Notes under the pieces: generated by a model
Told to the model about the DNA's origin: nothing
The model's input: the letters and a program-made list of their open reading frames with translations, nothing else
Databases searched by the model: none
Origin: a virus
Direction: 5' to 3' (one strand)
IMG/VR virus record: IMGVR_UViG_3300001918_000004
Length of the DNA: 64,000 bases
Made by a program: the position numbers and the translations under genes
Shown here: one piece after another, positions 12,357 to 48,862 of the stretch
How the letters are laid out: each line of letters starts with the position of its first letter
Numbering within the stretch: position 1 is the first letter of the stretch

Positions 12357-12376
12357 GAATTGTACCCGTATTACAC

Positions 12377-12877
12377 TTAAGACATTTGGCGAATGTGTTT
12401 AATGGAGAAGCAGTTGCCTTCTCGTTTCGCTCGTATTTGAAAGAATTTACCTACCGGATCAGCCACAGGAAGTTCGTCGTGCGTGATGCGTCCTTCCAAC
12501 TTAATCGTGAAGCTTTTGTCTTTCGACTTTATGACTCGAAATAACCCGTATTCGTACAGTTCGTTGTAGTGAATGCATTGACCAACCACACGCACATAAT
12601 CGTTCGTGTCGTCGTTGCTGCTGTCCACGCCTAAGATTTCGTAGGTCAGATACGGGGGAGTTTTCAAGGTTTTAGGTAACGCCGCAAACGTTCTAGGTTT
12701 AGTTAAGTCTGCGGGGGTGTCTGTTAGCCAAAACGTAAACGAGCGATTGAATGTTACAGGAATGTCCATGTCAGGTGTATGGAGTATCTTAGCTTTTTCG
12801 TCTAAGACTCCATACACACTGCCCACGGCACAACACACAACGGCACTAATTGAAGAAGAATTGTCGGGAATACTCAT
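12377..12877 (-). CDS. Hypothetical protein (possibly beta-barrel)
   Basis: 166-aa ORF in the replication block. Confidence 0.6.
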   Translation of the reverse strand: MSIPDNSSSISAVVCCAVGSVYGVLDEKAKILHTPDMDIPVTFNRSFTFWLTDTPADLTKPRTFAALPKTLKTPPYLTYEILGVDSSNDDTNDYVRVVGQCIHYNELYEYGLFRVIKSKDKSFTIKLEGRITHDELPVADPVGKFFQIRAKREGNCFSIKHIRQMS

Positions 12878-13006
12878 GTGACAGGCCTAACTCGTAAAAA
12901 CCGAATAGACCGACACGGCGCAGAAAACACACGATCACACACGAAACTAGGGGTACACAACACCATGGTTGTGAAGCTATCCCTAGCATAACCCGACTAT
13001 CCCAAC

Positions 13007-19406: not shown

Positions 19407-19681
19407 GATATTTTTCGACGGTTCTTCAACCTCTGTTGCTGGCGTAGGTTTAAAGCCATACGAGGGCGCAGGCTGCGGTTCTCTGGCGTTTCTTCGGTAT
19501 CGGTTGTCGGTTGAGTGTATAGGTTTAAGAACGCCTCAACCTGCTCATCTGTACCGTGTTGCGCGACTAAACGCAACAAGTCAATGGGAGGTTTTATCTG
19601 TGTATTCATGATGTAGTGTGGTGTTACGAAACAGCGGGAGAAATAGATAACATGACACGACCTAAATTGTGGGCGGAGCAC
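19397..19681 (-). CDS. Hypothetical protein
   Basis: Short ORF; true start probably at MNTQIK. Confidence 0.45.
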   Translation of the reverse strand: MLRPQFRSCHVIYFSRCFVTPHYIMNTQIKPPIDLLRLVAQHGTDEQVEAFLNLYTQPTTDTEETPENRSLRPRMALNLRQQQRLKNRRKISCS

Positions 19682-20226
19682 GCATCAGCAAAGGCTTTTG
19701 TTGGGTTGTTTCCGATGTAAATCAACGCACTACCCTTGGTGCTGCCTGTGGCTTTTGTGTTGAGCAAATCTAGCTTCTTTTGAAACTTCAACCGCCCTCG
19801 AATGAAGCAAATCGGATAGTCGTACAGCGGCGCAAACCAATGCTCAGATGTGCAGGCGTTAACCAACAACAAGCCAGACTCAAAGTGCTCTAACGCATAC
19901 TCTCTGAGCATTTTGGTCACAAACGCATCTTGACCGCCTCGACCGTACGGAGGGTTGCAAAACACGGTTGAAGCATTCCATGGTTCTGTGAGGCCGTCCA
20001 ATCCGTTATCTAACCCGAAGTAACGCTCGGCTTGTACCCGTTCGTTTGCTTCGGCACAGGACGCTGGATCTAGCTCGATACTACCTAGAAACCAACGGGC
20101 AAATTGAAGAATGTGCGTCGGAGTGTACCACTCATTCGAGTTGCTACTAAACGCAAAACGGGCAGGGCTTACAGGTGTTTCGCAAATGTCTGCGGTGGGA
20201 TCAAGCAGAAGCATTACCACCCCCAA
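19624..20226 (-). CDS. Phage-type DNA N6-adenine methyltransferase
   Basis: SNEWYTP, ELDPAS, VFCNPPYG, CFIRGRLKF. Confidence 0.9.
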   Translation of the reverse strand: MGVVMLLLDPTADICETPVSPARFAFSSNSNEWYTPTHILQFARWFLGSIELDPASCAEANERVQAERYFGLDNGLDGLTEPWNASTVFCNPPYGRGGQDAFVTKMLREYALEHFESGLLLVNACTSEHWFAPLYDYPICFIRGRLKFQKKLDLLNTKATGSTKGSALIYIGNNPTKAFADACSAHNLGRVMLSISPAVS

Positions 20227-20888
20227 TAGCCCATACGCAAAAGACGACCGATGACAGCGTAGTTAGCTAAATCTAAATAGCTGTCGTCGATGCTTTCGTT
20301 TACGGCTTCACGAGAACCGACATACTGAGAGTCTTTGATCCGGATTTGAAACCCGGATAAACTCAACAAGCGCGCCATCTTGTCCCACAGACGAGTAATT
20401 AAACCGATTTCGCCCGTACCTAAAATGTTTGCGGGACTGTAGTCTCGGTTCTTGTCCAAGTGCAAGCGGTACATCCGCATGATTGTTTCCATGAACACTT
20501 TGCACTGATTCGGGTTGTTTTGTTTAGTGGGATGTTCTGGGATGATTGTGCCAGCGTCGCACCACTCGTACACCGGGATTTTTTGTTCGAGCGCATATTC
20601 ATGCTCTGTCCGTGCGCCTCTCGATTCTGTCCAGTTCGGTAGCAGCACAATCGCATCACAACGCCGCAAAAGATTCAGTGAATGCATGATCCAATGCATG
20701 TATTGAGCTTCTGTATCTTTTGTGCCAAACGTAACGTCGTGTTCCAGGTTAGCGGTGTTTAAGTGCGGACACAGCACGGTATGTCCTTGGTTCCACAATG
20801 AGATTGCGACATTACGAGCTACGGCGATATTGAACTCAACCGTCCGTGTTTCACTTGCACTGTAGGGGCCAGCGAGATATAGCAGCAT
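20214..20888 (-). CDS. Nucleoside deoxyribosyltransferase-like (DUF4406-type) domain fused to a DUF1599/Nmad1-like domain
   Basis: N-terminus LYLAGPYS..CPHLN..RCDAIVLLPNWTESRGARTEH; C-terminus KNRDYS..RLWDKMARL..ESIDDSYLDLANYAVI. Confidence 0.75.
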   Translation of the reverse strand: MLLYLAGPYSASETRTVEFNIAVARNVAISLWNQGHTVLCPHLNTANLEHDVTFGTKDTEAQYMHWIMHSLNLLRRCDAIVLLPNWTESRGARTEHEYALEQKIPVYEWCDAGTIIPEHPTKQNNPNQCKVFMETIMRMYRLHLDKNRDYSPANILGTGEIGLITRLWDKMARLLSLSGFQIRIKDSQYVGSREAVNESIDDSYLDLANYAVIGRLLRMGYWGW

Positions 20889-21140: not shown

Positions 21141-21365
21141 TTAATTCTCCAGTAAGATGAGTCCTTGACGCACGTTGTTCACAATGCGTCGGGCGTTTTG
21201 TACTTGAGTTAAAAGGCGGGTTACTACGCGTAGAAACACCTCGTATTCTTCCGCCGTTGCATCGTTGTAAAGATCGTTCAGTAGTTGTTGGCTTTCCTCC
21301 ACTAAGCGGTTTCCGGCATCAATGTCCAATCTTCGGCTAACAGGTCTGTTTGAGAGGCCAGCCAT
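21141..21365 (-). CDS. Hypothetical protein
   Basis: 74-aa helical ORF in the operon. Confidence 0.5.
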   Translation of the reverse strand: MAGLSNRPVSRRLDIDAGNRLVEESQQLLNDLYNDATAEEYEVFLRVVTRLLTQVQNARRIVNNVRQGLILLEN

Positions 21366-21556
21366 GGTACTCGTCCTTTGGGTGCATGAGGGTTGTTTGT
21401 GACTAATGCAGTCGTGTCGATGTACAGAAACGGTTGAGTTACAAACGTAGATGGGCTAGGAAAGCACATCGCAATGTAAATGCCTTTGCCGTTCCATCCT
21501 TTGCGGGTCAGTTTGCGCCCTTCTTTGAGCAAATACAAAGCAGTCGAAAAGGTCAT
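21302..21556 (-). CDS. DUF2829 family protein (Tad2-like anti-defence sponge)
   Basis: MTFSTAL.LLKEGRKLTRKGWNGKG...PWLASQTDLLAEDW. Confidence 0.88.
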   Translation of the reverse strand: MTFSTALYLLKEGRKLTRKGWNGKGIYIAMCFPSPSTFVTQPFLYIDTTALVTNNPHAPKGRVPWLASQTDLLAEDWTLMPETA

Positions 21557-28819: not shown

Positions 28820-29611
28820 TTATTTCAAAAAGTCCGGCACAACGAAGTCAAAGAACAAGTTGTTAAGCCCCGCAGCGGACGAACTGAACTTTCCGGCTGT
28901 AAACGCTTGCTTGTGAAACTTATCAAACGTTGTTTCAATCCATGCGTTTAAACCTTCGTTTGGTGCGCCTTTAGAAAGTTCGCCTTGCTGCTTTAGGTTC
29001 AACATGTCTTGGACATCTGTTTTAACGCTGTACGGAATGTCCGAACCTGCCATTAATTTGTGCAACTCAATCGGAGGCATAGACTGCGCTTCGGCAATCC
29101 AAATACACGCCAGCAAAGATCGCACAACGTACAGGTAGCGTTTGTACTCGCATACTTCTTTGCCGTCGATGTACTTCCTGTAATTACCTGACGCTAGATG
29201 CAGGTAGTGGAATGTCGCTGTTTTCGGGTTAAACACATGGGCCATGCTTTGACGTAGCGTTTGAATTGCACCTGTGTCTGTGTACACGATAGGCGAATGC
29301 AACCACTCAAAGAAGCTTGGGTTTGACTTATAGGCCTGGAATAAAGCTTTTTGAATATCCCAACCGCTGAAATCTAGCTTAGTTTCTGGACTAAGCCACT
29401 GTAAGTTATCTTTTCCTGGTGTGATGCTGAGGTAGTTAGACAACGGCCTGCGGTACACGAAACGCACATCCCAATCTGAGTCTTGTGAGGCGAATCCCCA
29501 CGCACGAGAGCCGGATTCAATGGCGAATAAAATCTCAATGCCGTGCGCTTTTTCGAGCCTTTGCAGCACGAGAAGAATGGTCTCTTTCATGATCTTTTGC
29601 GGTGTCTCCAA
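28820..29611 (-). CDS. Pol-beta superfamily nucleotidyltransferase (RlaP/YcgL-like)
   Basis: AIESGSRAWGFASQDSDWDVRFVY; GWDIQKAL; NPSFFEWLHSP; KRYLYVVR. Confidence 0.9.
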   Translation of the reverse strand: METPQKIMKETILLVLQRLEKAHGIEILFAIESGSRAWGFASQDSDWDVRFVYRRPLSNYLSITPGKDNLQWLSPETKLDFSGWDIQKALFQAYKSNPSFFEWLHSPIVYTDTGAIQTLRQSMAHVFNPKTATFHYLHLASGNYRKYIDGKEVCEYKRYLYVVRSLLACIWIAEAQSMPPIELHKLMAGSDIPYSVKTDVQDMLNLKQQGELSKGAPNEGLNAWIETTFDKFHKQAFTAGKFSSSAAGLNNLFFDFVVPDFLK

Positions 29612-35124: not shown

Positions 35125-36318
35125 TTATACCCTTGGGTAGTGGAACAGGTCTTTACTTTTTTTGGTTGGTTTGAAGCTTTTGATTGCTAATACATGCTTG
35201 TTATAGGTGTACATCTGTATCCCCGTCCAAGGACGTTCAAACACAATCAAATTTCGGTGAAGGTGATAACGCCCAAAATACGGTATTGGGGTGTCTAATG
35301 GTCGATAGTACTTTTCGATACCTTCAAGTTCGTGTAAATCATACAAACGAATTGGCGTAGGCCTGACAGGATGCAATCGCCACAACAATTTATTTCGAGT
35401 CTCGGGTGCTCTTGGATGCTCTGACAGTTTCTTACTTCCTTCTGGAGTCCGAAGCAAGGGTGTTTCTGCGTGAGCTAAGTCATTGTTAAACGGACTGGCC
35501 CAAAACGTTTGGGGAACTTCACAAATGCGTGGTGTTTGTCCGCCCCAGCAAATGTTTCCGCTATCGTACACGTTTGTAATCGGAAACGGAGATGACCACA
35601 TCCGCAGTGTGTCCGGCAACGTATCCGCTTCCATGTGTGTCAGCAGCATTCTGACGCTGTGACGCGCCATATCAGAATACAGAGCATTACCGTTGTCATT
35701 TGTTTGCACTCTCAAAGTAAACGCATGCGGTGGGGTGTAGATTGTTTGAAGTAATTGTTTTGTTCCGATGTACGCTTCAAACCCTCTGGGGCAGTCTGTT
35801 GGATCGATTTCTTTTGCGGTGTTGCATGGAGGCTCGTCCTCGGGGTCGTTGAAATACGCTTTACCGCAGTTTGAACAGTAGGTCTCGTAGAACTCTACAG
35901 CATTCATTCGAGCGTTTGGGACTTCAACTACGGTAGAAAGTTGTTTAGGTTGACTGAACCCAAAAAACACGTTGTCCAAGTTACCCAAGTGGATGCCTGT
36001 CCATTCGTGCTTTGGCAGAGAAAACGACCCATAGTTTAAACGCTTAGATAGCAGGTCTATGATCGTGTGCAAAACACTATCTACCGCCTCAGAACATGCA
36101 AACACATGCATAGAATCTGTCGATGGGTGAGTGTTACCGGAAAGAGAAAGCTCTAAGTAGCAGGCATCTGCGGGTGTTGGTGGCAGTATTTTGGAGGTAA
36201 CAACCCATACGTGGTCTGCTGTAGGAGCAGCGCGCTGAGCGTCACGCAGCAAAATTTTTGTTAATGGGTCAGACAGTAACTTATTTACGTTTGACCACTG
36301 TTCTTCAGTAGGGTACAT
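35125..36318 (-). CDS. Prokaryotic E2-like protein 6 (Prok-E2_D/PRTRC-B-like) with Cys-rich insert
   Basis: PFPITNVYDSGNICWG..FWASPFNNDL; EFYETYCSNC..C..CP. Confidence 0.75.
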   Translation of the reverse strand: MYPTEEQWSNVNKLLSDPLTKILLRDAQRAAPTADHVWVVTSKILPPTPADACYLELSLSGNTHPSTDSMHVFACSEAVDSVLHTIIDLLSKRLNYGSFSLPKHEWTGIHLGNLDNVFFGFSQPKQLSTVVEVPNARMNAVEFYETYCSNCGKAYFNDPEDEPPCNTAKEIDPTDCPRGFEAYIGTKQLLQTIYTPPHAFTLRVQTNDNGNALYSDMARHSVRMLLTHMEADTLPDTLRMWSSPFPITNVYDSGNICWGGQTPRICEVPQTFWASPFNNDLAHAETPLLRTPEGSKKLSEHPRAPETRNKLLWRLHPVRPTPIRLYDLHELEGIEKYYRPLDTPIPYFGRYHLHRNLIVFERPWTGIQMYTYNKHVLAIKSFKPTKKSKDLFHYPRV

Positions 36319-36324
36319 ACGGTG

Positions 36325-37734
36325 TTAAACATCCTTGCATGACGTAACGATGATGGGGTAGCAACTACCCAATAAACCGCCGTATAGTTCAACGGAGGTT
36401 GTTCCGACTGGAAACAAAAACACAGCCGACGAAGTGAACCGATTACACGAACCTCTCCCGCCAGGTTCCCCGCCAAGTAACACAGCTTGGTTTAACTGAT
36501 ACTCTTCAGACGAAGGTTTGGCGATGCGGTAAAGTGCTGCGTTATTTATTTCGGATGTTAGTTGTTGGATACGCTCTGCGCCTGCAACACCGCTAGACAA
36601 GTGATACCAATCGTCATGCTCCAGGTCGGAGTTAAAGTAAGCACACCAAAACTTTTCGATGGCGTCTTGCATGCCGTGTCTGTCGATGTTGTCACCGAAA
36701 CAGATACGACCTGAGCCGTAAACGTTAAAGAACCGAAGCGCACGCAGCAAAAGAATGTCGTTACCAAACGCATCAGTTTGAAACGCGTGAGAACTAATGT
36801 ACATATCCTGGTTGTCTTGGTCATTGAGTAGTGAGTTTAGATTGTGTCCGTAACCGTAATTGTGCGGAGGCAGCGTGATGCTACACACTTTGATGTTGCT
36901 GGTTTCTTCGTCGTCTAAAACATTACCTTCAGGGCACTCGTCTAACTCCATCCAACTTGAACTCATCATGCCGGAGCAGCGGGATCGTTCATGATACCGA
37001 CTTTGAATGTTCATTAAAATAGAGTTCGTGCTGTAATAATCAGGCATCATGGACTCGTATGACTCGTTCCACAACGCTTCAATGTCTTCCGGTGTCAGGT
37101 CTCGTCCCAACTCTGCACGGCGTTCGTTAACTAAGTCGTAATCAAGCAAAGACCGAGCGATAAAATCCGTGTCGTACACCGCTAAAAAGCCTTCTTCATC
37201 GCAAATATCGTGCGCGAAGTCTTCGATGCTTTCTTGGTAGTTGCTGTACAGAGGACAATCCAAACAATACTCGTTAAAAAACTCACGGCGAGGCTGGTCG
37301 TCGCTTTGGGCCGATTGGTACTGAATTTGAGTCGTAACAAACTCGTCTCGAAAAGACAGCAGCACACCATTTACGCCGTCGTCTAGAATAATGCCTGAAT
37401 GTTTGTGTCGTTTCGGTAACTTGTGAACGACTGGATCTGTGCTGCCGTATCGAACCGCAGGATACTTCTCACACTCCGTCAGTTCCTCAAAAGCACACAA
37501 CTGCACACACAAGTCCAGATTTAACCACTCGATTACGTCTTCAGTTGCGTTTAGATACGTGTAAGCCAGTGGGAAACGCAATTCATCGTACAGGTGAGCT
37601 AGTAGTTTGGGATCGCGTTGAGCAAGAGCGTTGCTTAACGCCGGAGTGATCAAGATGCTAGGTAAAATAACAACCTCACGGGCAGATTCGGCCTCAGCAT
37701 GTGCTTGACGCAATGCTTCGTTGAGATAGTCCAT
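36325..37734 (-). CDS. Prokaryotic E2-like protein 5 with Cys-rich insert
   Basis: LRFFNVYGSGRICFG..FWCAYFNSDL; EFFNEYCLDC..C..C..CP. Confidence 0.75.
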   Translation of the reverse strand: MDYLNEALRQAHAEAESAREVVILPSILITPALSNALAQRDPKLLAHLYDELRFPLAYTYLNATEDVIEWLNLDLCVQLCAFEELTECEKYPAVRYGSTDPVVHKLPKRHKHSGIILDDGVNGVLLSFRDEFVTTQIQYQSAQSDDQPRREFFNEYCLDCPLYSNYQESIEDFAHDICDEEGFLAVYDTDFIARSLLDYDLVNERRAELGRDLTPEDIEALWNESYESMMPDYYSTNSILMNIQSRYHERSRCSGMMSSSWMELDECPEGNVLDDEETSNIKVCSITLPPHNYGYGHNLNSLLNDQDNQDMYISSHAFQTDAFGNDILLLRALRFFNVYGSGRICFGDNIDRHGMQDAIEKFWCAYFNSDLEHDDWYHLSSGVAGAERIQQLTSEINNAALYRIAKPSSEEYQLNQAVLLGGEPGGRGSCNRFTSSAVFLFPVGTTSVELYGGLLGSCYPIIVTSCKDV

Positions 37735-37748
37735 AATAAACCTCTGAA

Positions 37749-38579
37749 TTAAAGGGATGAGTGAGTTTTAACGACAAATCTGTTCAGGTTAACTGCTTCT
37801 GGGTCAGGTGCGTACAGCGTTATTGCTTCGGTACCAGCGGGCAGCTTTAATACGGGTTTGGAACCTGGCTCTTTGCGTTGGGGTGCATTAGGTTCAAACA
37901 CATTCCAAAGCGAGTGTATGTTGTATTTGACGTGTGCAACAGCATCGGATTTAGTTGCCTCACCAAATCCGAAGCAGTCTGCATAGTCCACTTCACCTTC
38001 ATCATTGAAGGGCGTAGCCCAAAACAACGTGCAGACATCCACCAAAGAAAGTATGCTTCGTGACCCGTAACATATTTCACCGTCGGTATAGGTGTTCAGA
38101 ATTGGATACGGTGTGACAGCGATCTGATCTGTCCACGTGCGGTTTATCTCTGTTGCATCACACATCATGTACAAACGCGCACGATCAAACACATATTCAA
38201 AGTTGTCGCTGTTGTTACGCCAGTTCTGGATTAGACTTACTTTGTACAGATGAGGGGCGATCCAAATGTCTTTGTAGTCTGCCAAACTATCGATTTCCGA
38301 TAAAATGCAGCATTGTACTTTACGCATTTGGTCGTAACAGACAACGACAGAAATCACCTCCCACATATCTGAAACCGACAAACCTACCCAACTACAGCTT
38401 TTCGGAACAGGGTGGTTCATTAACCAGGCTGTTGGCGGATCGTCTGTTTCAAACAACTGCGCCATACGAGTTGCTGCCATTAGATCGTTTTCAGGAGACG
38501 AAACGACGATTTGGTAATCCGGTAAAGAGTCGGGGTCGTCATCAGAAAAGGTTCTGGGAATGTACCAGTAATCTGCCAT
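37749..38579 (-). CDS. Prokaryotic E2-like protein 4
   Basis: DYWYIP; PYPILNTYTDGEICYG..FWATPFNDE. Confidence 0.75.
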   Translation of the reverse strand: MADYWYIPRTFSDDDPDSLPDYQIVVSSPENDLMAATRMAQLFETDDPPTAWLMNHPVPKSCSWVGLSVSDMWEVISVVVCYDQMRKVQCCILSEIDSLADYKDIWIAPHLYKVSLIQNWRNNSDNFEYVFDRARLYMMCDATEINRTWTDQIAVTPYPILNTYTDGEICYGSRSILSLVDVCTLFWATPFNDEGEVDYADCFGFGEATKSDAVAHVKYNIHSLWNVFEPNAPQRKEPGSKPVLKLPAGTEAITLYAPDPEAVNLNRFVVKTHSSL

Positions 38580-38589
38580 TGTGTAACCT

Positions 38590-39459
38590 CTAAGATGTGT
38601 GTGTGCGGAACATGGTGTGCCGTGTTTCGTAGTCTTTGAATACGGTCACAGACTTAACGTTTTCTGGGAACAAGATCAAGGTATTTAGATGCGGTTCAGA
38701 CATAAGTGGATATACCTGTCGGTCATCGCTGTGATGAAACACGGTGCAGCTACGGCACAAATCTGGACGCTCGTCTTTTACGTGACGTTCTAGCTCGTCC
38801 GCTGTAAGAGGCGAAAACCCAATCATTTCACTTCGGGGAAAGTCGCCATCTGTATTGAATGGCGATGACCAAAACAACTGCACAGCTTCGTCAAATGATT
38901 TCGGGTAATTTGAGCCGAAGCACACATACCCGTTGACACCCATGTTGTACTGCCGAAGGCCTGTGAAAAAGTCTTCACCTGTGCCGTTTAGCGGTAAATG
39001 TGTGTGAATGAAAGGCCCAGAAAACGGTCGTGACAAATCGTGGAAATGGTAACAAAACATGTGCGGCGGAACATGCAAAGTTATGTCGCTTGTTTCGTAC
39101 GATTCGCTGTAGTTGTTATACGTTTCCATAACGCTGTGCATTACCGTTGGTTTTTCATAACCTATAGCCAGCGCAACGTTGGTATAGTGGTCGTTGTGGT
39201 AAAGAATACCGGCCCAGGTTTTAGCTGAGGGCAGCTTCATCTGTGGAACCATGTGCGGTAGTTTTAGCTTTTTGACGAACTCGGTTTGGTTTCTAAGCAC
39301 TAGATCCCAAACTCGCATAACTTTGTAGTCTATGTCGTCGTTCGCAGGAATCCGAATGTAACTAGACCGGCTGAGTATTTTTTTCCATTGCGGCGTTTCG
39401 TCGCTACACACCCAATGCTCTGGTATGTACCAGTATTCTGTGACGTCAGGCTTTTGCGT
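38590..39459 (-). CDS. Prokaryotic E2-like protein 3 (start uncertain; the homologous start position is ACG)
   Basis: EYWYIP; LRQYNMGVNGYVCFG..FWSSPFNTD. Confidence 0.7.
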   Translation of the reverse strand, partial: TQKPDVTEYWYIPEHWVCSDETPQWKKILSRSSYIRIPANDDIDYKVMRVWDLVLRNQTEFVKKLKLPHMVPQMKLPSAKTWAGILYHNDHYTNVALAIGYEKPTVMHSVMETYNNYSESYETSDITLHVPPHMFCYHFHDLSRPFSGPFIHTHLPLNGTGEDFFTGLRQYNMGVNGYVCFGSNYPKSFDEAVQLFWSSPFNTDGDFPRSEMIGFSPLTADELERHVKDERPDLCRSCTVFHHSDDRQVYPLMSEPHLNTLILFPENVKSVTVFKDYETRHTMFRTHTS

Positions 39460-40321
39460 GGGTTCGGATGAGCGTTGTACCGCCGCACTGACTCGACCAA
39501 ACAGTGACCGCACGCGTGTGATTAGGGAATTTAACAAAGTAGATCACCTCGTCTTTAGGGCATAAGCTGAATGGGGTTTTAGGTTCTGGTTCTACAAAAC
39601 CAAACAGGTGTTTGTTTTTGTCTGGTACGGTTTTCATGTATTTGTCCGCTGCCTCTGATGTAAGACGTACCGGCAGATCAGACTCCAGTACCAGTTCGTC
39701 ATCGAACGGCGTGTCCCAATAAGCGGATAGCAGTTCGCTGAACGACTGCGGATCCGCATCACCTAAACAAACCGCACCGTCATCAAACACGTTGTAAAAC
39801 GGTAGCGGAGCTATACTGAACGCGTCTTGAGAGGTGTTCGATACTAAATACAAAAACGGACACTCAAACGGATCGTCTTCAGAAAAACCACATTCAATAG
39901 ACACCATGTGTTTTGGCACATCGAACGTGAAGATTGAGTCGGGTTTTTCTGATGGTGATCCGTCTGTTATGTGTTTGAGCACACCTACTTTCTGACGAAT
40001 TACATTAGGCACAAGCGCATGCAGCAGCACAGAATCTTGCTGGATACCTTCGATGCCCTCTTCGACGTAGCTAAATCCGTGGATGCAGTGTTTTGATAGC
40101 GGTGATAGACCCATCCACTTATAGAACATGTAATCTTTGTGTTCCTGATTCAGTAAGCGACCCAAACGAGTGTTCAACCCTGGAGTAGCTGGCAAAGCCA
40201 CATACTCTGTTTTGCCCTTAACGTGAACGTCAAAGTCAGGTAACTTGATTGATGCCGTTTCGAGGTTGGACACAAACGAAACAGGGATGTACCAGTATTC
40301 TGTTGTGTCAGTCGGTTGCAT
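39446..40321 (-). CDS. Prokaryotic E2-like protein 2
   Basis: ATG 40321; EYWYIP; PLPFYNVFDDGAVCLG..YWDTPFDDE. Confidence 0.78.
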   Translation of the reverse strand: MQPTDTTEYWYIPVSFVSNLETASIKLPDFDVHVKGKTEYVALPATPGLNTRLGRLLNQEHKDYMFYKWMGLSPLSKHCIHGFSYVEEGIEGIQQDSVLLHALVPNVIRQKVGVLKHITDGSPSEKPDSIFTFDVPKHMVSIECGFSEDDPFECPFLYLVSNTSQDAFSIAPLPFYNVFDDGAVCLGDADPQSFSELLSAYWDTPFDDELVLESDLPVRLTSEAADKYMKTVPDKNKHLFGFVEPEPKTPFSLCPKDEVIYFVKFPNHTRAVTVWSSQCGGTTLIRTHAKA

Positions 40322-41168
40322 AGGTTCGGAAGATGGCTGCGTGTGTGTACAGGCATGTCCAGCTTGAAACGCGCCTGGTTGTGTCGGGGAATTTAACAAA
40401 GCGAAGTACCTCATCTATAGGATGGACATCAAAAGGTTCGTTAGGCTTAGGCTCTACCAAGACGTAAGTATGGTGGAATCCGCAAGCATCTGATTTAAAG
40501 TGGTCGCTTACCCGTTCTGGCGTTAAGTCGAATAGAAGATCTGATTCGTCTCCCATTTCATTGCTAAAAGGCGTGTCCCAATACGCCGAAAACAGTTCGT
40601 TAAACGATGTAACGTCAACTCCGCCTAAACATACAGTGGCATCGACATAGACGTTGTAAAACGGAAGTGGACATGCTTGAAACTGGGCGTGTACGGTGTC
40701 AGAAATCAGGTAAAAATGCGGGCTTCCAAATGGATTTCCGCCAAAATAGCAGTCGATAAGTACCATGTGTTTTGGTACATCGAACGTGATCTTTGAAATC
40801 GGGCGTGTGTCTGATTCGTTCTCGCTAGGGTGTTCCAGCTTAAGTAAGCCGGTTACTTGACGCTTTACGGTGGGCCTGACCACATGCAAGAATGTACCTT
40901 TGAACGAATGCGCCGGAAGCGTTTCGTCACTATAGCTAAACCCGGCATAGCAGCTTTTCGGTATCGGTTGCTGTTCCAGCAGCGGTCTAAACCGTTCACC
41001 CTGGCTTGAAGCAAACAGTGAGTTTATGCGTGTATCTACATCAGGCGTAGCCGGAATAGCTATATAGCCAGTACCGGCCGGTCTAGGGTAGGTTTGGTTA
41101 AGGTTAAACTCGAAGGTCTTGCGATCCCCTAAAAAGCAATACGGGATGTACCAGAACTCGTTTTCCAT
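40308..41168 (-). CDS. Prokaryotic E2-like protein 1
   Basis: EFWYIP; PLPFYNVYVDATVCLG..YWDTPFSNE. Confidence 0.78.
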   Translation of the reverse strand: MENEFWYIPYCFLGDRKTFEFNLNQTYPRPAGTGYIAIPATPDVDTRINSLFASSQGERFRPLLEQQPIPKSCYAGFSYSDETLPAHSFKGTFLHVVRPTVKRQVTGLLKLEHPSENESDTRPISKITFDVPKHMVLIDCYFGGNPFGSPHFYLISDTVHAQFQACPLPFYNVYVDATVCLGGVDVTSFNELFSAYWDTPFSNEMGDESDLLFDLTPERVSDHFKSDACGFHHTYVLVEPKPNEPFDVHPIDEVLRFVKFPDTTRRVSSWTCLYTHAAIFRTYATD

Positions 41169-41171
41169 GCG

Positions 41172-42248
41172 TTAACTGCCTTGGGTGTAATAGAAGGGGT
41201 CAAGGGTTTCGTCGTAGTCGAGTTTGCTTGCAGGCAAAGCTTTGATTTCCAGTGCAGGTTTTTGTGTGTTGGTGTACTGTTTTTCGTACCCTGCGTACTC
41301 GATACTGACTAACGCCTCAGCTAAATGGTCAAACGTGAGATCATCGCCATAAGTTGTCATTAGCTGTTCGATAAAGGTTTCAAACTCGATCAACGCTTCT
41401 TGTAGTTTGGAATAATGCTGCCCGAGTGGAGTGCGTGCAGGTGTGTCTTGCTCTTTCCGACCAGGCAGAAGTTTGGACAAATCAAACCCATACGAGTTGC
41501 GCTTGCCGTAGCTTTTAGAGTTAAAGGTCTGCCAACGCCGCTTGTAGTGTTCGCTGTAAACACCGTCCGCATAGTCGGTGTAGTACGAATGTTGGCTGAT
41601 GAATGAAAACACACTCTCGTGCGGCTTGGTTGGTTCCTCACCTTCTGCACCGGCCAGTTCGATTAAGTCAGCCGCAGCAATTTTGTAACGCTTGCGTTGC
41701 TGCACGATAGAGGCGTCAGGTACATATTCCATCTTGGCAAGACTGATGCTGCGAACAAGAATGTGCGCCCCAGGCACGTCTAACTCGTTGGCGTCATCTA
41801 CGGCGGAAAAGCTGCACGACATAACATGATGCGAGTGCGATGATCCGGCATGCAGCCAACCGGCAGGCGGAAACTGGTCGTAAACTTCGCCCGTAATAAG
41901 GTCGATGCAGTTTGCAAAGTCTTCAGCGTGAACGCTTGCACCTGTGACGGTTTGTTTGGGTACAACAACTTTCCACTGCTGTTTTGTAGCAGCGTCACGC
42001 AGCAACAGCACAGATACTTCTAAGCTGCTGATGCGGGCGTAGTGAAAGTACAGGTCAATGATTGCAGACCACAGAGAATACGGGATTTTGGGGATGTCTG
42101 GACGTAACTGAAACTCAACCGGCACTTTGTCCACCGTTGCGAGTGGGTCTGGAATTTGCTGGTAGTACGCACCCCAAGCCGTAAGTTTGGGTAGATACAC
42201 GCCACTGAAGGGGGTACGAATCAACTGATCGTTAGCGTCGTTAGTCAT
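41172..42248 (-). CDS. JAB/MPN+ metalloisopeptidase (prokaryotic JAB, PRTRC-A-like)
   Basis: LEVSVLL, VPKQTV, SHSHHVMSCSFSAVDDANE (HxH..S..D motif). Confidence 0.9.
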   Translation of the reverse strand: MTNDANDQLIRTPFSGVYLPKLTAWGAYYQQIPDPLATVDKVPVEFQLRPDIPKIPYSLWSAIIDLYFHYARISSLEVSVLLLRDAATKQQWKVVVPKQTVTGASVHAEDFANCIDLITGEVYDQFPPAGWLHAGSSHSHHVMSCSFSAVDDANELDVPGAHILVRSISLAKMEYVPDASIVQQRKRYKIAAADLIELAGAEGEEPTKPHESVFSFISQHSYYTDYADGVYSEHYKRRWQTFNSKSYGKRNSYGFDLSKLLPGRKEQDTPARTPLGQHYSKLQEALIEFETFIEQLMTTYGDDLTFDHLAEALVSIEYAGYEKQYTNTQKPALEIKALPASKLDYDETLDPFYYTQGS

Positions 42249-42303
42249 AACGTAAACCTAGGTATGTGAATAAAAAAAATCCAACCAATCGGCCCGGTAG
42301 TCA

Positions 42304-42335
42304 TGCAGGTGTGAGAGTTATTGCTCACACCTGCA
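42304..42335. terminator. Perfect 12-bp hairpin between E1 and JAB
   Basis: TGCAGGTGTGAG...CTCACACCTGCA. Confidence 0.55.
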
Positions 42336-42344
42336 CACCGCTAC

Positions 42345-43064
42345 CTACGTGAGGGCTTTCATTTTGTGAGTGGACAGATCGAACAGAATCTCAGTCGGTG
42401 GTTCAGAGGTGAAACGACCGCTTAAGAAACATTCGAGATAGTGCAGCGATATGGTTGCTGCCATTGCATTTGCTGTAATGAGTTGCGGCGTTGATTCTTG
42501 CGCCTCAAAACAACCACGGCGGTTGTTGCTTGGGCGACGATCTTTCGGTGCGCCGATGTCGGGGTACACCTCACGAGGATCGGCACAAATAGCCGTACCG
42601 TGTTCGTCTCGACCGAAGATAAGCACGCGTCCAGTGTCGTAATCGTTGCCTGGGCTGATGTACAGATACGAACATCCGACCGCATCGCAGGTGTCTAGTA
42701 CAAGCTTGCGTGTGGCGTGATTGTCAACAGCACAAAGCACAACTAACGGACGTTCGGTGCCGGTGCGTCGATGGGATTCAATCACCTCACGCAACTGATA
42801 CGTGTCTGCGTACACGGGACGAGTTTCGACAGTGAGAGCTTCAAGCACATCGGGACTAATTAAAGCAGCAGCGGCTTCGGCTTTGTTTGCATCAGGGATG
42901 TAACCGAGTTGTCGCTGGGCATTTTTAGCCTCGTAGGTATCGCCGTCCATAATGACAAGGCGTTTGGGTGCATCGGGGTGGTACGCCAGTAAGCGAGACA
43001 ACGCTGGCAACATGTGCGTACCTGTGCCTCCGGCACCTATGAGTAGTGCAGTAGAGGTGGACAT
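42345..43064 (-). CDS. E1/ThiF-family ubiquitin-like activating enzyme
   Basis: LIGAGGTG, DGDTYEAKNAQRQ, CAVDNHATRK, ISPGN, C-terminal CFE..PQLITANAMAA with candidate catalytic Cys. Confidence 0.92.
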   Translation of the reverse strand: MSTSTALLIGAGGTGTHMLPALSRLLAYHPDAPKRLVIMDGDTYEAKNAQRQLGYIPDANKAEAAAALISPDVLEALTVETRPVYADTYQLREVIESHRRTGTERPLVVLCAVDNHATRKLVLDTCDAVGCSYLYISPGNDYDTGRVLIFGRDEHGTAICADPREVYPDIGAPKDRRPSNNRRGCFEAQESTPQLITANAMAATISLHYLECFLSGRFTSEPPTEILFDLSTHKMKALT

Positions 43065-43110
43065 GTTATTTTGATGGTGATGTGTGTGTTACGAAAATCG
43101 TGACCATCCC

Positions 43111-43156
43111 GTATTGTTTGGGGCGCAACCGTTACACGACAACGCCCCAACAATAC
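43111..43156. terminator. GC-rich hairpin between Ubl and E1
   Basis: GTATTGTTTGGGGCG...CGCCCCAACAATAC. Confidence 0.55.
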
Positions 43157-43166
43157 TTTTTAGGGA

Positions 43167-43460
43167 TTAGCAGCCTTTAGATTCGGCAGAGATGGAGAGA
43201 GTAACAACGTCACCGGCTTTGACAACGGTACTGAAGGGTTGCACGCTGCCATTGAGACGGGCAGTGGTGATCCGGTCAGGACGAAACCCGAGTTCATTGG
43301 CAGCAGCAGAAAGAGCTTGCCCGATGGTCAAGCCTTCAGTGACAGGGATTTGGGTTTCTTCGAGAGCGAATTGCACGGTAACGGTGGTGGGAACGGGAGC
43401 GGAATCAGCAGGAGCGTTGTTGGCAGAGTTGTTGTTGTTGTTGAACAAGAAGTTAAACAT
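43167..43460 (-). CDS. Ubiquitin-like beta-grasp protein ending in SKGC
   Basis: VTVQF..IPVTEGLTIGQAL..ARLNG..VVKAGDVVTL..ESKGC; first gene of the Ubl-E1-JAB-E2 run. Confidence 0.85.
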   Translation of the reverse strand: MFNFLFNNNNNSANNAPADSAPVPTTVTVQFALEETQIPVTEGLTIGQALSAAANELGFRPDRITTARLNGSVQPFSTVVKAGDVVTLSISAESKGC

Positions 43461-44894: not shown

Positions 44895-45251
44895 TTATTG
44901 GTCGTCAAACGCTTTGTCAACTAGCTTTGAAAGCAAAGCCCCAACCTCGCTGCGGGCTTCTTCAAAACGTTCAGTTGTCATGCCGTGTATGTCCCTCCGA
45001 ATACATTCGGCATTGCGTTTGATGTTTGCAGACGCAGCAAATAACTCATCAGCGAGATGGGTATTGCCTACAGTTTCTAACGCCAGAGCCAACTCGCTTA
45101 GATGCGTCGCAATTGCATGCAACTCAACGCATCGGTCTAGAGCCGACGTTACTTTTTCTGAGTTCGCCACTGCTAATCCTCTACAAAACAACAACAAGTT
45201 TTCGGCGTGTACGAGCGACGTTATTGCGGAGTGCGTGTAGGTTTTGGACAA
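44895..45251 (-). CDS. Hypothetical helical protein
   Basis: 118-aa ORF. Confidence 0.5.
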   Translation of the reverse strand: MSKTYTHSAITSLVHAENLLLFCRGLAVANSEKVTSALDRCVELHAIATHLSELALALETVGNTHLADELFAASANIKRNAECIRRDIHGMTTERFEEARSEVGALLSKLVDKAFDDQ

Positions 45252-45540
45252 ACGCTATACGGTATTCTCCGTCTGAATCACGCCGCAATCGAACGACGTT
45301 AGGGAAACGTCCAGTGAGTCCGTGAATTATGATGACTAACGCCACTGCAATTTCTTGCAGCTTTGGTAGCACAATACACACTTCGGAAGCCCCCTGGACG
45401 TAGGGTTCGATATATTCCGTGAGTTTTGCGTACATGGACGCATCGTTGAGGTTTACGTGGGGTGAAGGCACGTCCACGAAACCTTCAGCTTTTAGCACTT
45501 GGTTTTCGTGCCCTGACAGGTTTAGTTTGATTTGCTGCAT
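45181..45540 (-). CDS. Csx15-like protein (cyclic-oligoadenylate binding/ring-nuclease family)
   Basis: LNLSGH...VLPKLQEIAVAL..IHGLTGRFPNVVRLR..YRIAFVQNLHALR..ARTRR follows the Csx15 pattern LNFSH..PxL..A..LxxLHGxxGxFP..RLR..F...E..NLQxxR..AR. Confidence 0.7.
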   Translation of the reverse strand: MQQIKLNLSGHENQVLKAEGFVDVPSPHVNLNDASMYAKLTEYIEPYVQGASEVCIVLPKLQEIAVALVIIIHGLTGRFPNVVRLRRDSDGEYRIAFVQNLHALRNNVARTRRKLVVVL

Positions 45541-45895
45541 TTACATTAAGTACCTCGATCAAGTTAGCGGCTGCGTCGTTTGTGATGTACAAATACCGAC
45601 CCGGCCAGCCCACACTGAGTCGGTACACATCGGAGCGATGTCTTAAGGGTGCCAAGTCACTGACGTGGTTCGGATTAACCCACGTGTTGTCAGCGACTTG
45701 CACATACTTGTGTTCTTTAGCCATGCGCTGCAAGTACAGCAATTCATGGTTGTTGTTTCCGATGGTTTCGGCGTAGTATTCACCCCGCTCGAAAACCACA
45801 ACTTTATTTCGGTCTGGCCAATACACAAACGCTGAAATGTGGTCAGGATCGCACATCAGCGTGTACGGCTTGGTGGTTATTAACAGTTCAGGCAT
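45485..45895 (-). CDS. LytTR-like domain protein, putative
   Basis: DPDHISAF and YVQVADNTWVNPNHVSDL resemble LytTR I.YIE and F.R.HRS..VN...I. Confidence 0.4.
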   Translation of the reverse strand: MPELLITTKPYTLMCDPDHISAFVYWPDRNKVVVFERGEYYAETIGNNNHELLYLQRMAKEHKYVQVADNTWVNPNHVSDLAPLRHRSDVYRLSVGWPGRYLYITNDAAANLIEVLNVNAANQTKPVRARKPSAKS

Positions 45896-46385: not shown

Positions 46386-46594
46386 GACAGCCTTAGAGCG
46401 TCTTGATTAGACATCATCAACGCGCCTTTGCGACGTAATCGCCGCACCATGCGTTCGTCGATGGCGTACCGTACGTCATCGTAGTTGATGGCAAACCAGT
46501 TGGATAATGCAGCGTCGTAGCAGACGGCTACAATCGTGGATTCCGGCATAAAACACCTCCGTGTGCGTGTGGTTACGAAAAAGTAACGGCACAA
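46343..46594 (-). CDS. Hypothetical protein
   Basis: True start probably MPEST after GGAGGT. Confidence 0.5.
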   Translation of the reverse strand: MCRYFFVTTRTRRCFMPESTIVAVCYDAALSNWFAINYDDVRYAIDERMVRRLRRKGALMMSNQDALRLSWQLTRACVTQEAA

Positions 46595-46692
46595 CCGAAG
46601 TCATGCCGCTACGTTGTTGTGTGTGTGGTAGAGGGAAGGGTTATTTATATTGCGCCACCACTTCAGGCACATCGGCTTAAGGGATAAGCCTA

Positions 46693-46778
46693 CGCCCCAG
46701 GCTGGACTCGAACCAGCTACACAACGCTATCAGGAGGCCCGAAGGCTGATAACGCCATGTATCCCACGTAACTGGAGC
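46693..46778 (-). ncRNA. tRNA-like RNA 1 with non-canonical anticodon arm
   Basis: Acceptor GCTCCAG/CTGGGGC; T-arm GCTGG-TTCGAGT-CCAGC; 10-bp stem GCGTTATCAG/CTGATAGCGT with a 12-nt loop. Confidence 0.7.
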
Positions 46779-46786
46779 ACAGGAGG

Positions 46787-47071
46787 TTAGGTAGCGTACC
46801 GCTTAGCTACCTTTTCGCCCCACAAACAGCAGCCTAACGCCGCTACTGTGGTTTGAACTAAGGCTTTTGCCTCTGCGTGCCCTAACTTAATGGGCTTAGC
46901 GTTGGGTTGAGTGCGGTACAAACGCCCGTTTCGGGCCGTAATGCAGATTTCAGACTGCACACCAACTAACGGCTGGATGTGGTAGCCGAAAATTAACTGC
47001 ACACCCAATTTGTACCCGACAAACTCACCTTGGGCGTTAAAGAAAGCTTCAGACAAACGAATCGTAAACAT
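46787..47071 (-). CDS. Hypothetical protein
   Basis: GGAGA precedes the ATG. Confidence 0.55.
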   Translation of the reverse strand: MFTIRLSEAFFNAQGEFVGYKLGVQLIFGYHIQPLVGVQSEICITARNGRLYRTQPNAKPIKLGHAEAKALVQTTVAALGCCLWGEKVAKRYAT

Positions 47072-47080
47072 GTTTATCTC

Positions 47081-47269
47081 CTACTTATGGAGGGTGACTT
47101 TTAGCGTGTCTCCACCTTCGGGTGGCGTGTATGTGAAAGTAACGTTGTCGTTGGTCGTGAACCCTAATGCACGCAACAAGCGCAGCAACAAATACCGCCG
47201 TCGGGTGACGACGTTGAAGCAATAGCGTTGTGCTGCACGCAGTATTGCTTCGATGCCTTCAGTTGTCAT
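47081..47269 (-). CDS. Hypothetical protein
   Basis: GGAG precedes the ATG. Confidence 0.55.
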   Translation of the reverse strand: MTTEGIEAILRAAQRYCFNVVTRRRYLLLRLLRALGFTTNDNVTFTYTPPEGGDTLKVTLHK

Positions 47270-47297
47270 GTTTTAACTCCTGTTCAATTTGATGACG

Positions 47298-47723
47298 TCA
47301 ATCGCAGGGTTCCTCTTGGAAATCTTTGAGAACCTTACGCAATGCGTCGGACACCGTAGGGTCTCCGTAGTCTGTGAGTAACGACCACACGGTATCGCCT
47401 ACCCACAGCAACGCCCCGTCTGTGTCGTTGTTAGATACCTCCACATACGTCGTGTTGTTGAATTGCTTTTTAACGGTGCATCCGTATCCGGCTGCTTCAA
47501 GCTCTTTGACGATTTGGTTCACTAGAGGGGTCTGACGAATCTTAATCGACACTACTGTTTCGGTGTCGTTGTCTCGTCTGATAACCCATTCGTTGCCACT
47601 TTGCCGCATGTACCCTAGTGCTTTGAGCACTGTAACTAAAATTTCGTCCCGCAGGACAAACGACACGTCGTATTGAGCCTGAATGGACTCGACGACGGCG
47701 GTCAAAATATCCAGTAACGCCAT
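47298..47723 (-). CDS. Hypothetical protein
   Basis: ATG 47723 follows the repeated leader. Confidence 0.65.
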   Translation of the reverse strand: MALLDILTAVVESIQAQYDVSFVLRDEILVTVLKALGYMRQSGNEWVIRRDNDTETVVSIKIRQTPLVNQIVKELEAAGYGCTVKKQFNNTTYVEVSNNDTDGALLWVGDTVWSLLTDYGDPTVSDALRKVLKDFQEEPCD

Positions 47724-47738
47724 AATAAAAAACCTCAA

Positions 47739-47966
47739 CTACACAGCTTCGATGGCTTCGCGCTCTTCGCGCTCGACTAAATCCCAATACCGGGACAATT
47801 TTGCCTTTTCGACGGCACGACTGAAATGCTCGTGCGTGCCGACATAATGCATGTTCTCGGCGGGCACGGTCAATCGGACATGGTGCTCCATTGAAGCGAA
47901 CTTGTGCTCCATAACGTACCAAGGGGTACGTTTTATTTCTATGTACTCGTGCGGGTTATTCCGCAT
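47739..47966 (-). CDS. Hypothetical protein
   Basis: ATG follows the repeated leader. Confidence 0.65.
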   Translation of the reverse strand: MRNNPHEYIEIKRTPWYVMEHKFASMEHHVRLTVPAENMHYVGTHEHFSRAVEKAKLSRYWDLVEREEREAIEAV

Positions 47967-48090
47967 AAAAAAACCTCAACTACACAACAAAAAAACAGCG
48001 ACACACCTAAAAGCATGTCGCTGCCTGTATTACCTTATGGAGATAGATAATTACTTATTATGCGCCATTACCCACGGCGCAGAATGGGAC

Positions 48091-48372
48091 TTAATCTTCG
48101 TCGGCGTCGTCCTCCCACTCCATGAGCCGTGTTATCCAGTTGTGCTCTACGGAGTTCTGTTCTTGCGGGTAATGTTCACCTCGTCTATAAAACCTTTCCG
48201 ATGTTTTTTCCATACCACCGCACGGCATTCGCTCCCACGTCTGTATGCACAGCAAGCTCCAGCCGGTGTACCGCTGGAAAAACTGCAAAATTCCATGCAA
48301 ATCCGTCGATTGATTGGGGTCTCCGTGCAGTAAATATTGCTCGTCCCGTTTAGTCACATACAGCGTTTTCAT
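48091..48372 (-). CDS. Hypothetical protein
   Basis: ATG follows the repeated leader. Confidence 0.65.
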   Translation of the reverse strand: MKTLYVTKRDEQYLLHGDPNQSTDLHGILQFFQRYTGWSLLCIQTWERMPCGGMEKTSERFYRRGEHYPQEQNSVEHNWITRLMEWEDDADED

Positions 48373-48428
48373 AATAAAAAACCTCTCAACTACACAACAA
48401 CAAAATTAACCGCTGCAATGAACGGTTA

Positions 48429-48513
48429 CGCCTCGTGCAGGAATCGAACCTGCTGCTACGTCGCAAACAAACTCCACTAAGTTTGCAACGCATCCTCCCA
48501 TGAGGTACGAGAC
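48429..48513 (-). ncRNA. tRNA-like RNA 2 with non-canonical anticodon arm
   Basis: Acceptor GTCTCGT/ACGAGGC; D-arm CTC-ATGG-GAG; 10-bp stem CGTTGCAAAC/GTTTGCGACG with a 12-nt loop; T-arm GCAGG-TTCGATT-CCTGC. Confidence 0.7.
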
Positions 48514-48557
48514 AAAAAACACACGCCGTAGCAAGTTATTGTTGTTGCGGCGTGTGT
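48514..48557 (-). terminator. Rho-independent terminator-like hairpin
   Basis: ACACACGCCG/CGGCGTGTGT arms followed by a T run on the minus strand. Confidence 0.55.
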
Positions 48558-48622
48558 GTATGTATTCAATATGTCCCATCATTTGCGTGGTACTTTAACG
48601 TCATTTCACGCCGGACTGAGTA

Positions 48623-48862
48623 TTAGCCGATAATGACACGTTTCAGTGTCTTCAAATGCGTCTGCACGTGCTGCGGCTGTAACGCAATTTTTGCGTCACG
48701 TTTCGCACGTTTTCGCTCAATTATTTTCTCGACTGTGCGTGGTTCCGGCAGTGGGACGCCGGTAAGGTTACTAAGCTGCGTTTGCCATGCGTCGGGCACG
48801 TAGTTAGGCCCGACAGCAGCAACGGTTGCATTGTTTTTACGCAATTCAATTATTTTCGGCAC
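48623..48862 (-). CDS. Hypothetical basic protein
   Basis: GGGAGG precedes the GTG start. Confidence 0.55.
   Translation of the reverse strand: MPKIIELRKNNATVAAVGPNYVPDAWQTQLSNLTGVPLPEPRTVEKIIERKRAKRDAKIALQPQHVQTHLKTLKRVIIG

Follow-up and report, generated by a model that had tools for sequence, protein, structure and literature searches.

The window analysed here is a stretch of 64,000 nucleotides from the viral contig IMGVR_UViG_3300001918_000004, which is 88,870 bp long and extends 25 kb beyond the 64-kb window. On its minus strand, the window carries a gene of the csx15 family, P0001, followed by a second small gene in the same orientation:

45181..45540, minus strand: csx15-family gene P0001, 119 aa, member of a short-form viral clade
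45553..45556, minus strand: possible Shine-Dalgarno sequence GAGG, 12 nt 5' of the P0001 ATG (consensus match only)
44895..45170, minus strand: co-oriented downstream gene with no assigned function, most likely 91 aa from a GTG at 45170, with the same arrangement on the related contig L001

The P0001 reading frame runs from an ATG at 45540 to a stop codon at 45181-45183. Since its N-terminus, MQQIKLNLSGH, aligns with the N-termini of about 50 homologs, we consider this start codon to be correct. The GTG of the downstream gene lies 10 nt past the csx15 stop, and no Pfam match was found for the protein encoded at 44895-45170. A 118-aa ORF was also listed at 44895-45251 on the minus strand, where it overlaps the 3' end of csx15 by 71 nt. 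The 91-aa homolog on L001 and the GTG at 45170 suggest that the real downstream gene is the shorter one, at 44895-45170.

We determined the family of P0001 from profile searches. The protein scored 46.4 bits against the NCBIfam model NF040560 CAS_Csx15, above the curated cut-off of 35 (E-value 4.1e-12), and also matched the PADLOC Csx15 model (E-value 6.4e-11). A Pfam search returned zero families at E-values up to 10. By phmmer, P0001 matched the Csx15 entries of the PDB, 9tet at 1e-5 and 9teu at 0.011. We matched 9teu and 9tet to CliCsx15 and PfCsx15 (bioRxiv 10.64898/2026.01.21.700848), respectively, by residue-number offset; the numbering of 9teu is that of CliCsx15 plus 7, which is the basis of the residue mapping below. 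A phmmer search with P0001 over the whole sequence library gave 41 relatives with E-values of 1e-3 or below, mainly 114-123 aa in length, and all 33 aligned homologs matched the CAS_Csx15 HMM.

The initial annotation had read the Csx15 pattern from end to end in this protein. Single-sequence HMM alignments of P0001 reach only residues 44-113 or 53-113. A profile built from the 33 homologs aligned over positions 4-113 with 9teu (E-value 4.5e-14) and over positions 5-101 with 9tet (E-value 3.8e-13), and also matched the Csx15 domain of the Schlafen effector CbCash (1e-5). The end-to-end reading thus holds at the profile level, with the N-terminal N-x-S-G-H visible, and the HMM score bears out the family name. 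As judged by sequence comparison, P0001 is a genuine Csx15-family protein.

Four elements of P0001 correspond to functional elements of characterised Csx15 proteins:

45508..45525, minus strand: head motif L-N-L-S-G-H, residues 6-11 (aligned with 9teu and 9tet by profile)
45301..45327, minus strand: central motif I-H-G-L-T-G-R-F-P, residues 72-80 (aligned pairwise with 9tet and 9teu)
45262..45264, minus strand: Y93, on the beta-hairpin (alignment to 9teu)
45202..45228, minus strand: C-terminal "tail" arginine motif R-N-N-V-A-R-T-R-R, residues 105-113

Residue conservation was counted over 49 short-form, 6 intermediate and 15 canonical sequences. In the head motif, where LNLSGH is aligned with LNFSGH in 9teu and INFSGH in 9tet, P0001 H11 aligns with the catalytic "head" histidine, which is H8 in HaCsx15, H13 in CliCsx15 and H11 in PfCsx15. 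This residue is present in all short-form (49/49) and all canonical (15/15) sequences. The central IHGLTGRFP is aligned with LHGRLGHFP and LHGLLGHFP, which gives the family pattern h-H-G-x-x-G-x-F-P. Its histidine, H73, aligns with the central histidine of CliCsx15 (H90) and PfCsx15 (H82) and is found in 47 of the 49 short-form sequences, while G77 is invariant in both the short-form (49/49) and canonical (15/15) sets. Y93 aligns with CliCsx15 Y113 and PfCsx15 F106, which stack on or flank an adenine; the position is aromatic in 47/49 short-form and 15/15 canonical sequences. In the tail, R105, R110 and R113 align with HaCsx15 R118, R122 and R125. The first and last are each present in 49/49 short-form sequences and R110 in 48/49. 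Mutating the equivalent residues in CliCsx15, PfCsx15 and HaCsx15 abolishes catalysis, cA4 binding or oligomerisation (10.64898/2026.01.21.700848; 10.64898/2026.10.26.761840). Every Csx15 residue known to be important from mutagenesis or structure (H11, H73, Y93 and R105/R110/R113) is therefore present in P0001.

The short form also differs consistently from the canonical one. Its median size is 118 aa versus 129 aa, about 11 residues fewer. The head reads N-L-S-G-H in the short form and N-F-[AS]-H in the canonical form, so that an extra glycine precedes the catalytic histidine. Asn13 is invariant in the short form, Thr76 stands where canonical proteins have Met, and R-N stands where they have R-D. 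Short-form proteins usually have one extra residue between the first and second tail arginines; the triad of P0001 is spaced R-x4-R-x2-R versus R-x3-R-x2-R in canonical Csx15. These changes in the head and in the arginine spacing could alter ligand choice or stacking, and could be an adaptation to faster turnover or to a broader ligand range.

An AlphaFold2 model of P0001, computed from a 33-sequence alignment, had a pLDDT of 95.6 and a pTM of 0.85. In the model, strands and helices alternate and are followed by a beta-hairpin (81-87, 93-100) and a C-terminal helix with the arginines; the predicted fold is Rossmann-like with a beta-hairpin. The best fold matches were SAVED and CARF domains with weak scores, and they overlap the set published for canonical Csx15 (7RWM, 8FMF, 8Q3Z). 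Matches to AFDB clusters reached a TM of up to 0.76, and several of these were named CRISPR-associated or SAVED. A search of BFVD found only small unnamed viral proteins, with weak scores (E-value >= 2e-3). The initial annotation had looked to structure prediction for a Csx15 match, and this was answered in part: the model is confident and has weak SAVED and CARF matches, but no Csx15 crystal structure was among its fold-search matches.

We next looked at the surroundings of the gene. Genes of phage replication and recombination run throughout the window, which is phage-like in content. It encodes a class II-like ribonucleotide reductase (RNR; 1633 aa), PolA, a primase/helicase, an exonuclease and a Sak4-like annealing protein, and almost all of these genes are on the minus strand. 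A Tandem Repeats Finder run over the 64 kb gave no CRISPR array, and no cas genes were found among the about 50 window ORFs scanned with Pfam or PHROGs, in agreement with the initial annotation, which had noted neither in the window. P0001 thus has no adjoining type III CRISPR locus, as expected for a viral copy; for cellular Csx15 genes, 25% are reported in genomes without type III. No integrase was found among the window ORFs scanned, a partial scan of a contig with 25 kb outside the window. Other genes or gene groups in the window are:

21305-21556, minus strand: Tad2-like (Thoeris anti-defence 2) protein, 84 aa (PF11195, 73.7 bits, cut-off 25)
19624-20888, minus strand: Dam-type N6-adenine methyltransferase (PF05869), then a DUF4406/DUF1937 protein with a DUF1599 "nucleotide modification associated" tail
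28820-29611, minus strand: RlaP, RNA repair pathway Pol-beta family nucleotidyltransferase (PF10127, 221.7 bits)
35125-43460, minus strand: Ubl/E1/E2 operon, with a ThiF-like E1 at 42345-43064 and Prok-E2_D-like proteins
43167-43460, minus strand: ThiS/Ubl-like protein, 97 aa (sub-threshold)

By its Pfam match, the Tad2-like gene is a second putative signal-sponge gene of this phage, and together with the Dam methylase gene it makes up further candidate anti-defence content. The nucleotidyltransferase at 28820-29611 was considered as a cyclase partner of Csx15 in the phage and rejected, since it is RlaP and not a CD-NTase. A possible role of RlaP in RNA repair could counter RNA-cleaving defences. 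The Ubl/E1/E2 operon is collinear in L001 and does not accompany Csx15 in other phages. We also rejected a functional link between this operon and csx15, because no neighbour gene accompanies Csx15 across phage lineages.

Two tRNA-like features lie upstream of csx15. The first, at 46670-46790 on the minus strand, has a perfect T-arm (GCUGG-UUCGAGU-CCAGC) and an acceptor-like stem, with a long hairpin where the D and anticodon arms are expected; neither ARAGORN nor Rfam called anything here. Within it, the 3' ends of tRNA-Asn(GTT) genes from over 30 small cyanobacterial-phylum genomes match 46691-46720 over 26-30 nt (93-96%), and a strong terminator-like hairpin follows the element at 46612-46583. 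We regard the element as a possible attP-like site or decayed tRNA. The second is an 87-nt tRNA-Cys(GCA) called by ARAGORN at 48428-48514 on the minus strand. Rfam found no tRNA in 46400-48800 at E-values up to 0.1, and the call is either doubtful or an unusual tRNA.

We then asked where else the gene is found. Among 50,697 deposited phage records there was no match to the 5 kb around the gene by megablast or to P0001 by tblastn, which agrees with Hoikkala et al. 2024, who reported Csx15 in 0 of 28,114 phage genomes. The closest relative of the window was a Logan contig, L001 (48.7 kb), which is collinear with it over 20 kb and has a Csx15 gene in the equivalent slot. The two Csx15 proteins are 53% identical, and several neighbouring genes are 70-73% identical. 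In IMG/VR, a Csx15 gene was found on 10 contigs belonging to at least seven unrelated groups. The Csx15 gene alone is common to these groups and the window, and the groups have nothing else in common with each other.

Five of the IMG/VR carrier records were examined further. These included G402 (216 kb, estimated 96% complete), which has an integrase match; G404 (91.7 kb, estimated 100% complete), with a terminase match and no integrase match; and G406 (91.5 kb, 100% complete), which carries direct terminal repeats and, like G404, lacks an integrase match. In all, an integrase match was absent from four of the five records searched, and none of the five had a match to the Cas10 palm2 domain. 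Three more close homologs are surrounded by small unannotated ORFs, ThyX and HNH genes. The contigs of six further short-form homologs (P0006, P0008, P0010, P0023, P0035 and P0056) are shorter than 2.5 kb, and their context is uninformative. A phage-like 42-kb contig, L016, carries an IS605-type OrfB/TnpB (Cas12f1-like_TNB) and a Y1 transposase at 11753-13602, an insertion about 3.4 kb from its Csx15 gene.

The only cellular context that we saw was on L012 (JBCCVR010000270.1), a 7-kb contig of a cyanobacterial metagenome-assembled genome (MAG):

247-3261 of L012: RAMP protein, 559 aa (PF03787, 36.9 bits); short-form Csx15, 118 aa (39.8 bits); 303-aa protein

On this contig, the RAMP gene is followed by Csx15, by the gene for the 303-aa protein, which has a sub-threshold CARF match (TIGR02710), and then by ordinary metabolic genes.

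To place these sequences, we inferred a maximum-likelihood tree rooted with canonical cellular Csx15, including annotated Thermoflexus and Alienimonas copies. All 11 phage-context sequences and L012 grouped in a single 40-row clade (support 98/90), within which the window and L001 form the first branch. All copies of known context in this short-form clade are on phage DNA except one. Because 27 of the rows have no known context, the direction of transfer is not fixed by the tree. Still, the phage copies all belong to a separate short-form clade, and the phylogeny therefore points to an old phage-resident lineage. The capture inferred in the initial annotation, if read as a recent acquisition from a CRISPR locus of the host, is not supported.

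The isolated phages nearest to the window by PolA and primase are the Pseudanabaena phages PA-SR01 and Pam2, at 29-37% identity, and a cyanobacterial host is plausible. We found no spacer-like match between 20 kb of window DNA and 401 genomes of the cyanobacterial phylum; apart from the 26-30-nt tRNA-Asn match described above, this search gave only a few matches at chance level. The Csx15 HMM matched in one of the 401 sampled genomes, on contig L012. In the same phylum, 59 of 301 sampled genomes scored above the cut-off for Cas10/Cmr2, a potential target of the phage protein's action. This survey used TIGR02577; the Cas10 palm2 model PF22335 also matches an E. coli control and is hence not specific.

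The activity of cellular Csx15 is now published. The initial annotation had placed the family among cyclic oligoadenylate (cOA) binding proteins and ring nucleases, and cA4 binding or cleavage, together with neutralisation of type III immunity in E. coli, has since been reported. Csx15 dimers stack head-to-tail on cA4 and so form composite sites, and some members only sequester cA4 while others cleave it (10.64898/2026.01.21.700848; 10.64898/2026.10.26.761840). In E. coli, CliCsx15 lifts type III immunity that depends on cA4 (Chi et al., 10.64898/2026.01.21.700848). It is slow and leaves 3'-phosphate ends (10.64898/2026.01.21.700848), while Klimavicius et al. describe rapid cleavage with slow turnover and the products A2>p and A2p (10.64898/2026.10.26.761840). 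PfCsx15 is catalytically inactive despite having the same residues, and so the residues cannot predict whether a member is a sponge or an enzyme.

Considering that P0001 has all the residues involved in Csx15 function, we think that it is probably a phage cOA sponge or ring nuclease directed against type III CRISPR and possibly also against CBASS. For this protein we infer the binding of a ligand, the filaments, the sponge or nuclease mode, the timing of expression, the host and the targeted defence, and we picture its action as follows. The stand-alone short-form protein would form a dimer, as characterised Csx15 proteins do. On binding cA4, and possibly cA3 to cA6 or CBASS trinucleotides, the dimers would stack head-to-tail, with the ligand sandwiched between the H11 head of one dimer and the R105/R110/R113 tail of the next. 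The bound ligand would then be held, as in a sponge, or hydrolysed, as in a ring nuclease. Early in infection, the level of the second messenger made by host Cas10 would fall and the CARF and SAVED effectors would remain off. Such a protein would do the work of AcrIII-1 as an anti-CRISPR while belonging to another fold family.

The same biochemistry might instead be aimed mainly at CBASS-type or other non-CRISPR cyclic oligonucleotides, such as cA3 and cAAG, which would make P0001 an anti-CBASS or broad anti-signalling protein. CsCsx15 and HaCsx15 cleave 3'3'3'-cAAG and 2'3'3'-cAAA besides cA3 to cA6 (Klimavicius et al., 10.64898/2026.10.26.761840), and in the 1-min reactions in which CsCsx15 took cA4, it also took cA3, cA5 and 3'3'3'-cAAG. 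However, CliCsx15, PfCsx15, CsCsx15, HaCsx15 and CbCash all bind or cleave cA4, which is the sole or clearly fastest ligand of CliCsx15, PfCsx15 and HaCsx15. Structurally, Csx15 is near SAVED, the sensor domain of CBASS, but its genomic association with CBASS is weak relative to that with Cas10 (10.64898/2026.10.26.761840), and the lone cellular short-form member, on L012, adjoins a RAMP gene. The deviations of the short form at the head histidine and in the arginine spacing, and the Tad2-like sponge, which marks an investment of this phage against signalling defences, do fit a wider target. On balance we consider CBASS rather unlikely to be the main target.

It is quite improbable that P0001 serves the phage as a sensor or regulator, detecting host cA4 and passing the signal to a phage effector or to a lysis/lysogeny decision, much as the Csx15 domain does in Cash. 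Csx15 domains do act as cA4 sensors when fused to Schlafen, Csx1, HTH and other domains, and the conserved 91-aa gene follows P0001 with a gap of only 10 nt. P0001 itself, however, is stand-alone and without an effector domain, and no neighbour gene is conserved with Csx15 across phage lineages. It also keeps the catalytic histidine and arginines, which goes beyond the residues needed for mere binding.

Least probable of all is a lysogeny "moron" that tunes host type III immunity and damps autoimmunity against the prophage rather than acting in lytic counter-defence: although viral Csx15 homologs are predominantly in IMG/VR prophage regions (Klimavicius et al., 10.64898/2026.10.26.761840), cellular Csx15 has been proposed as a dampener of aberrant cA4 and the carrier G402 has an integrase, the four carrier records that lack an integrase match include the genome with direct terminal repeats, and the partial scan of the window ORFs likewise gave none.

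We compared the probable cOA sponge or ring nuclease with known systems. Like canonical Csx15, P0001 is a small stand-alone protein that scores above the HMM cut-off and has the head histidine, the central His-Gly motif, the hairpin aromatic and the arginine triad. Unlike canonical Csx15, it is phage-encoded, lies away from cas genes, is about 11 residues shorter and belongs to a separate clade (98/90). With AcrIII-1 (DUF1874; the viral homolog of Crn2) it shares small size, viral origin and the proposed removal of cA4, which disables type III effectors. The family and fold are unrelated: P0001, with zero Pfam matches, has no match to DUF1874, and the statement of the initial annotation that it comes from a different family than AcrIII-1 is upheld. 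Moreover, AcrIII-1 is a fast enzyme with an active site inside one dimer and 2',3'-cyclic phosphate products, whereas Csx15 requires head-to-tail filaments with composite sites. AcrIII-2, a viral SAVED ring nuclease (PDB 9R8S), and the SAVED proteins of CBASS have a duplicated, pseudo-dimeric domain of about 240 aa, while P0001 is a single 119-aa unit that would need to dimerise. If P0001 is non-catalytic like PfCsx15, it would be a cyclic-nucleotide sponge and in this resemble the Tad2/Acb2-type sponges, which have unrelated folds and other ligands (gcADPR, cyclic di- and trinucleotides).

Before October 2026, phage genomes were reported to lack Csx15, from which it was argued that an anti-CRISPR role would bring no benefit (Hoikkala et al. 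2024; Chi et al. 2026). Chi et al. reasoned that type III systems make much cOA, against which a slow nuclease or a sponge might do poorly as an anti-CRISPR (10.64898/2026.01.21.700848), and Klimavicius et al. likewise doubt its viral use from the slow turnover (10.64898/2026.10.26.761840). In October 2026, Klimavicius et al. described about 20 or more metagenomic viral Csx15 homologs (10.64898/2026.10.26.761840). The idea of a viral Csx15 is therefore already published, as AcrIII-3 (10.64898/2026.10.26.761840). Like P0001, the protein that they tentatively name vCsx15 or "AcrIII-3" is virus-encoded, metagenomic and a hypothesised ring nuclease (Klimavicius et al., 10.64898/2026.10.26.761840). 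The founding example of vCsx15 comes from a Lokiarchaeota virus MAG, and its homologs are described as mostly in prophage regions. P0001, unlike vCsx15 as described, is encoded on a large phage-like contig to which another contig is collinear, and related copies are in complete genomes without an integrase match.

A further reading of the clade is possible, which we hold only tentatively. Short-form Csx15 would be phage-born, a widespread anti-signalling protein (AcrIII-3) that forms filaments and whose gene passes singly among unrelated phages, and the rare cellular cas-adjacent copies such as that on L012 would have been domesticated from phages. This would reverse the capture scenario, and the transfer may have run in the same direction as that proposed from AcrIII-1 to Crn2.

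To the published viral Csx15, our analysis adds a distinct short-form clade in large phage genomes that keeps every catalytic and binding residue. It also adds complete carrier phage genomes that are apparently non-integrating, two of them without an integrase match, and a csx15 gene that moves singly between unrelated phages and, in the window, co-occurs with a Tad2-like sponge gene. With its 119 aa, P0001 is a small and easily expressed candidate for asking whether a filament-forming sponge or slow nuclease can serve as an anti-CRISPR, and it could reveal whether the viral form has come to turn over its ligand faster or to accept more ligands, CBASS signals among them.
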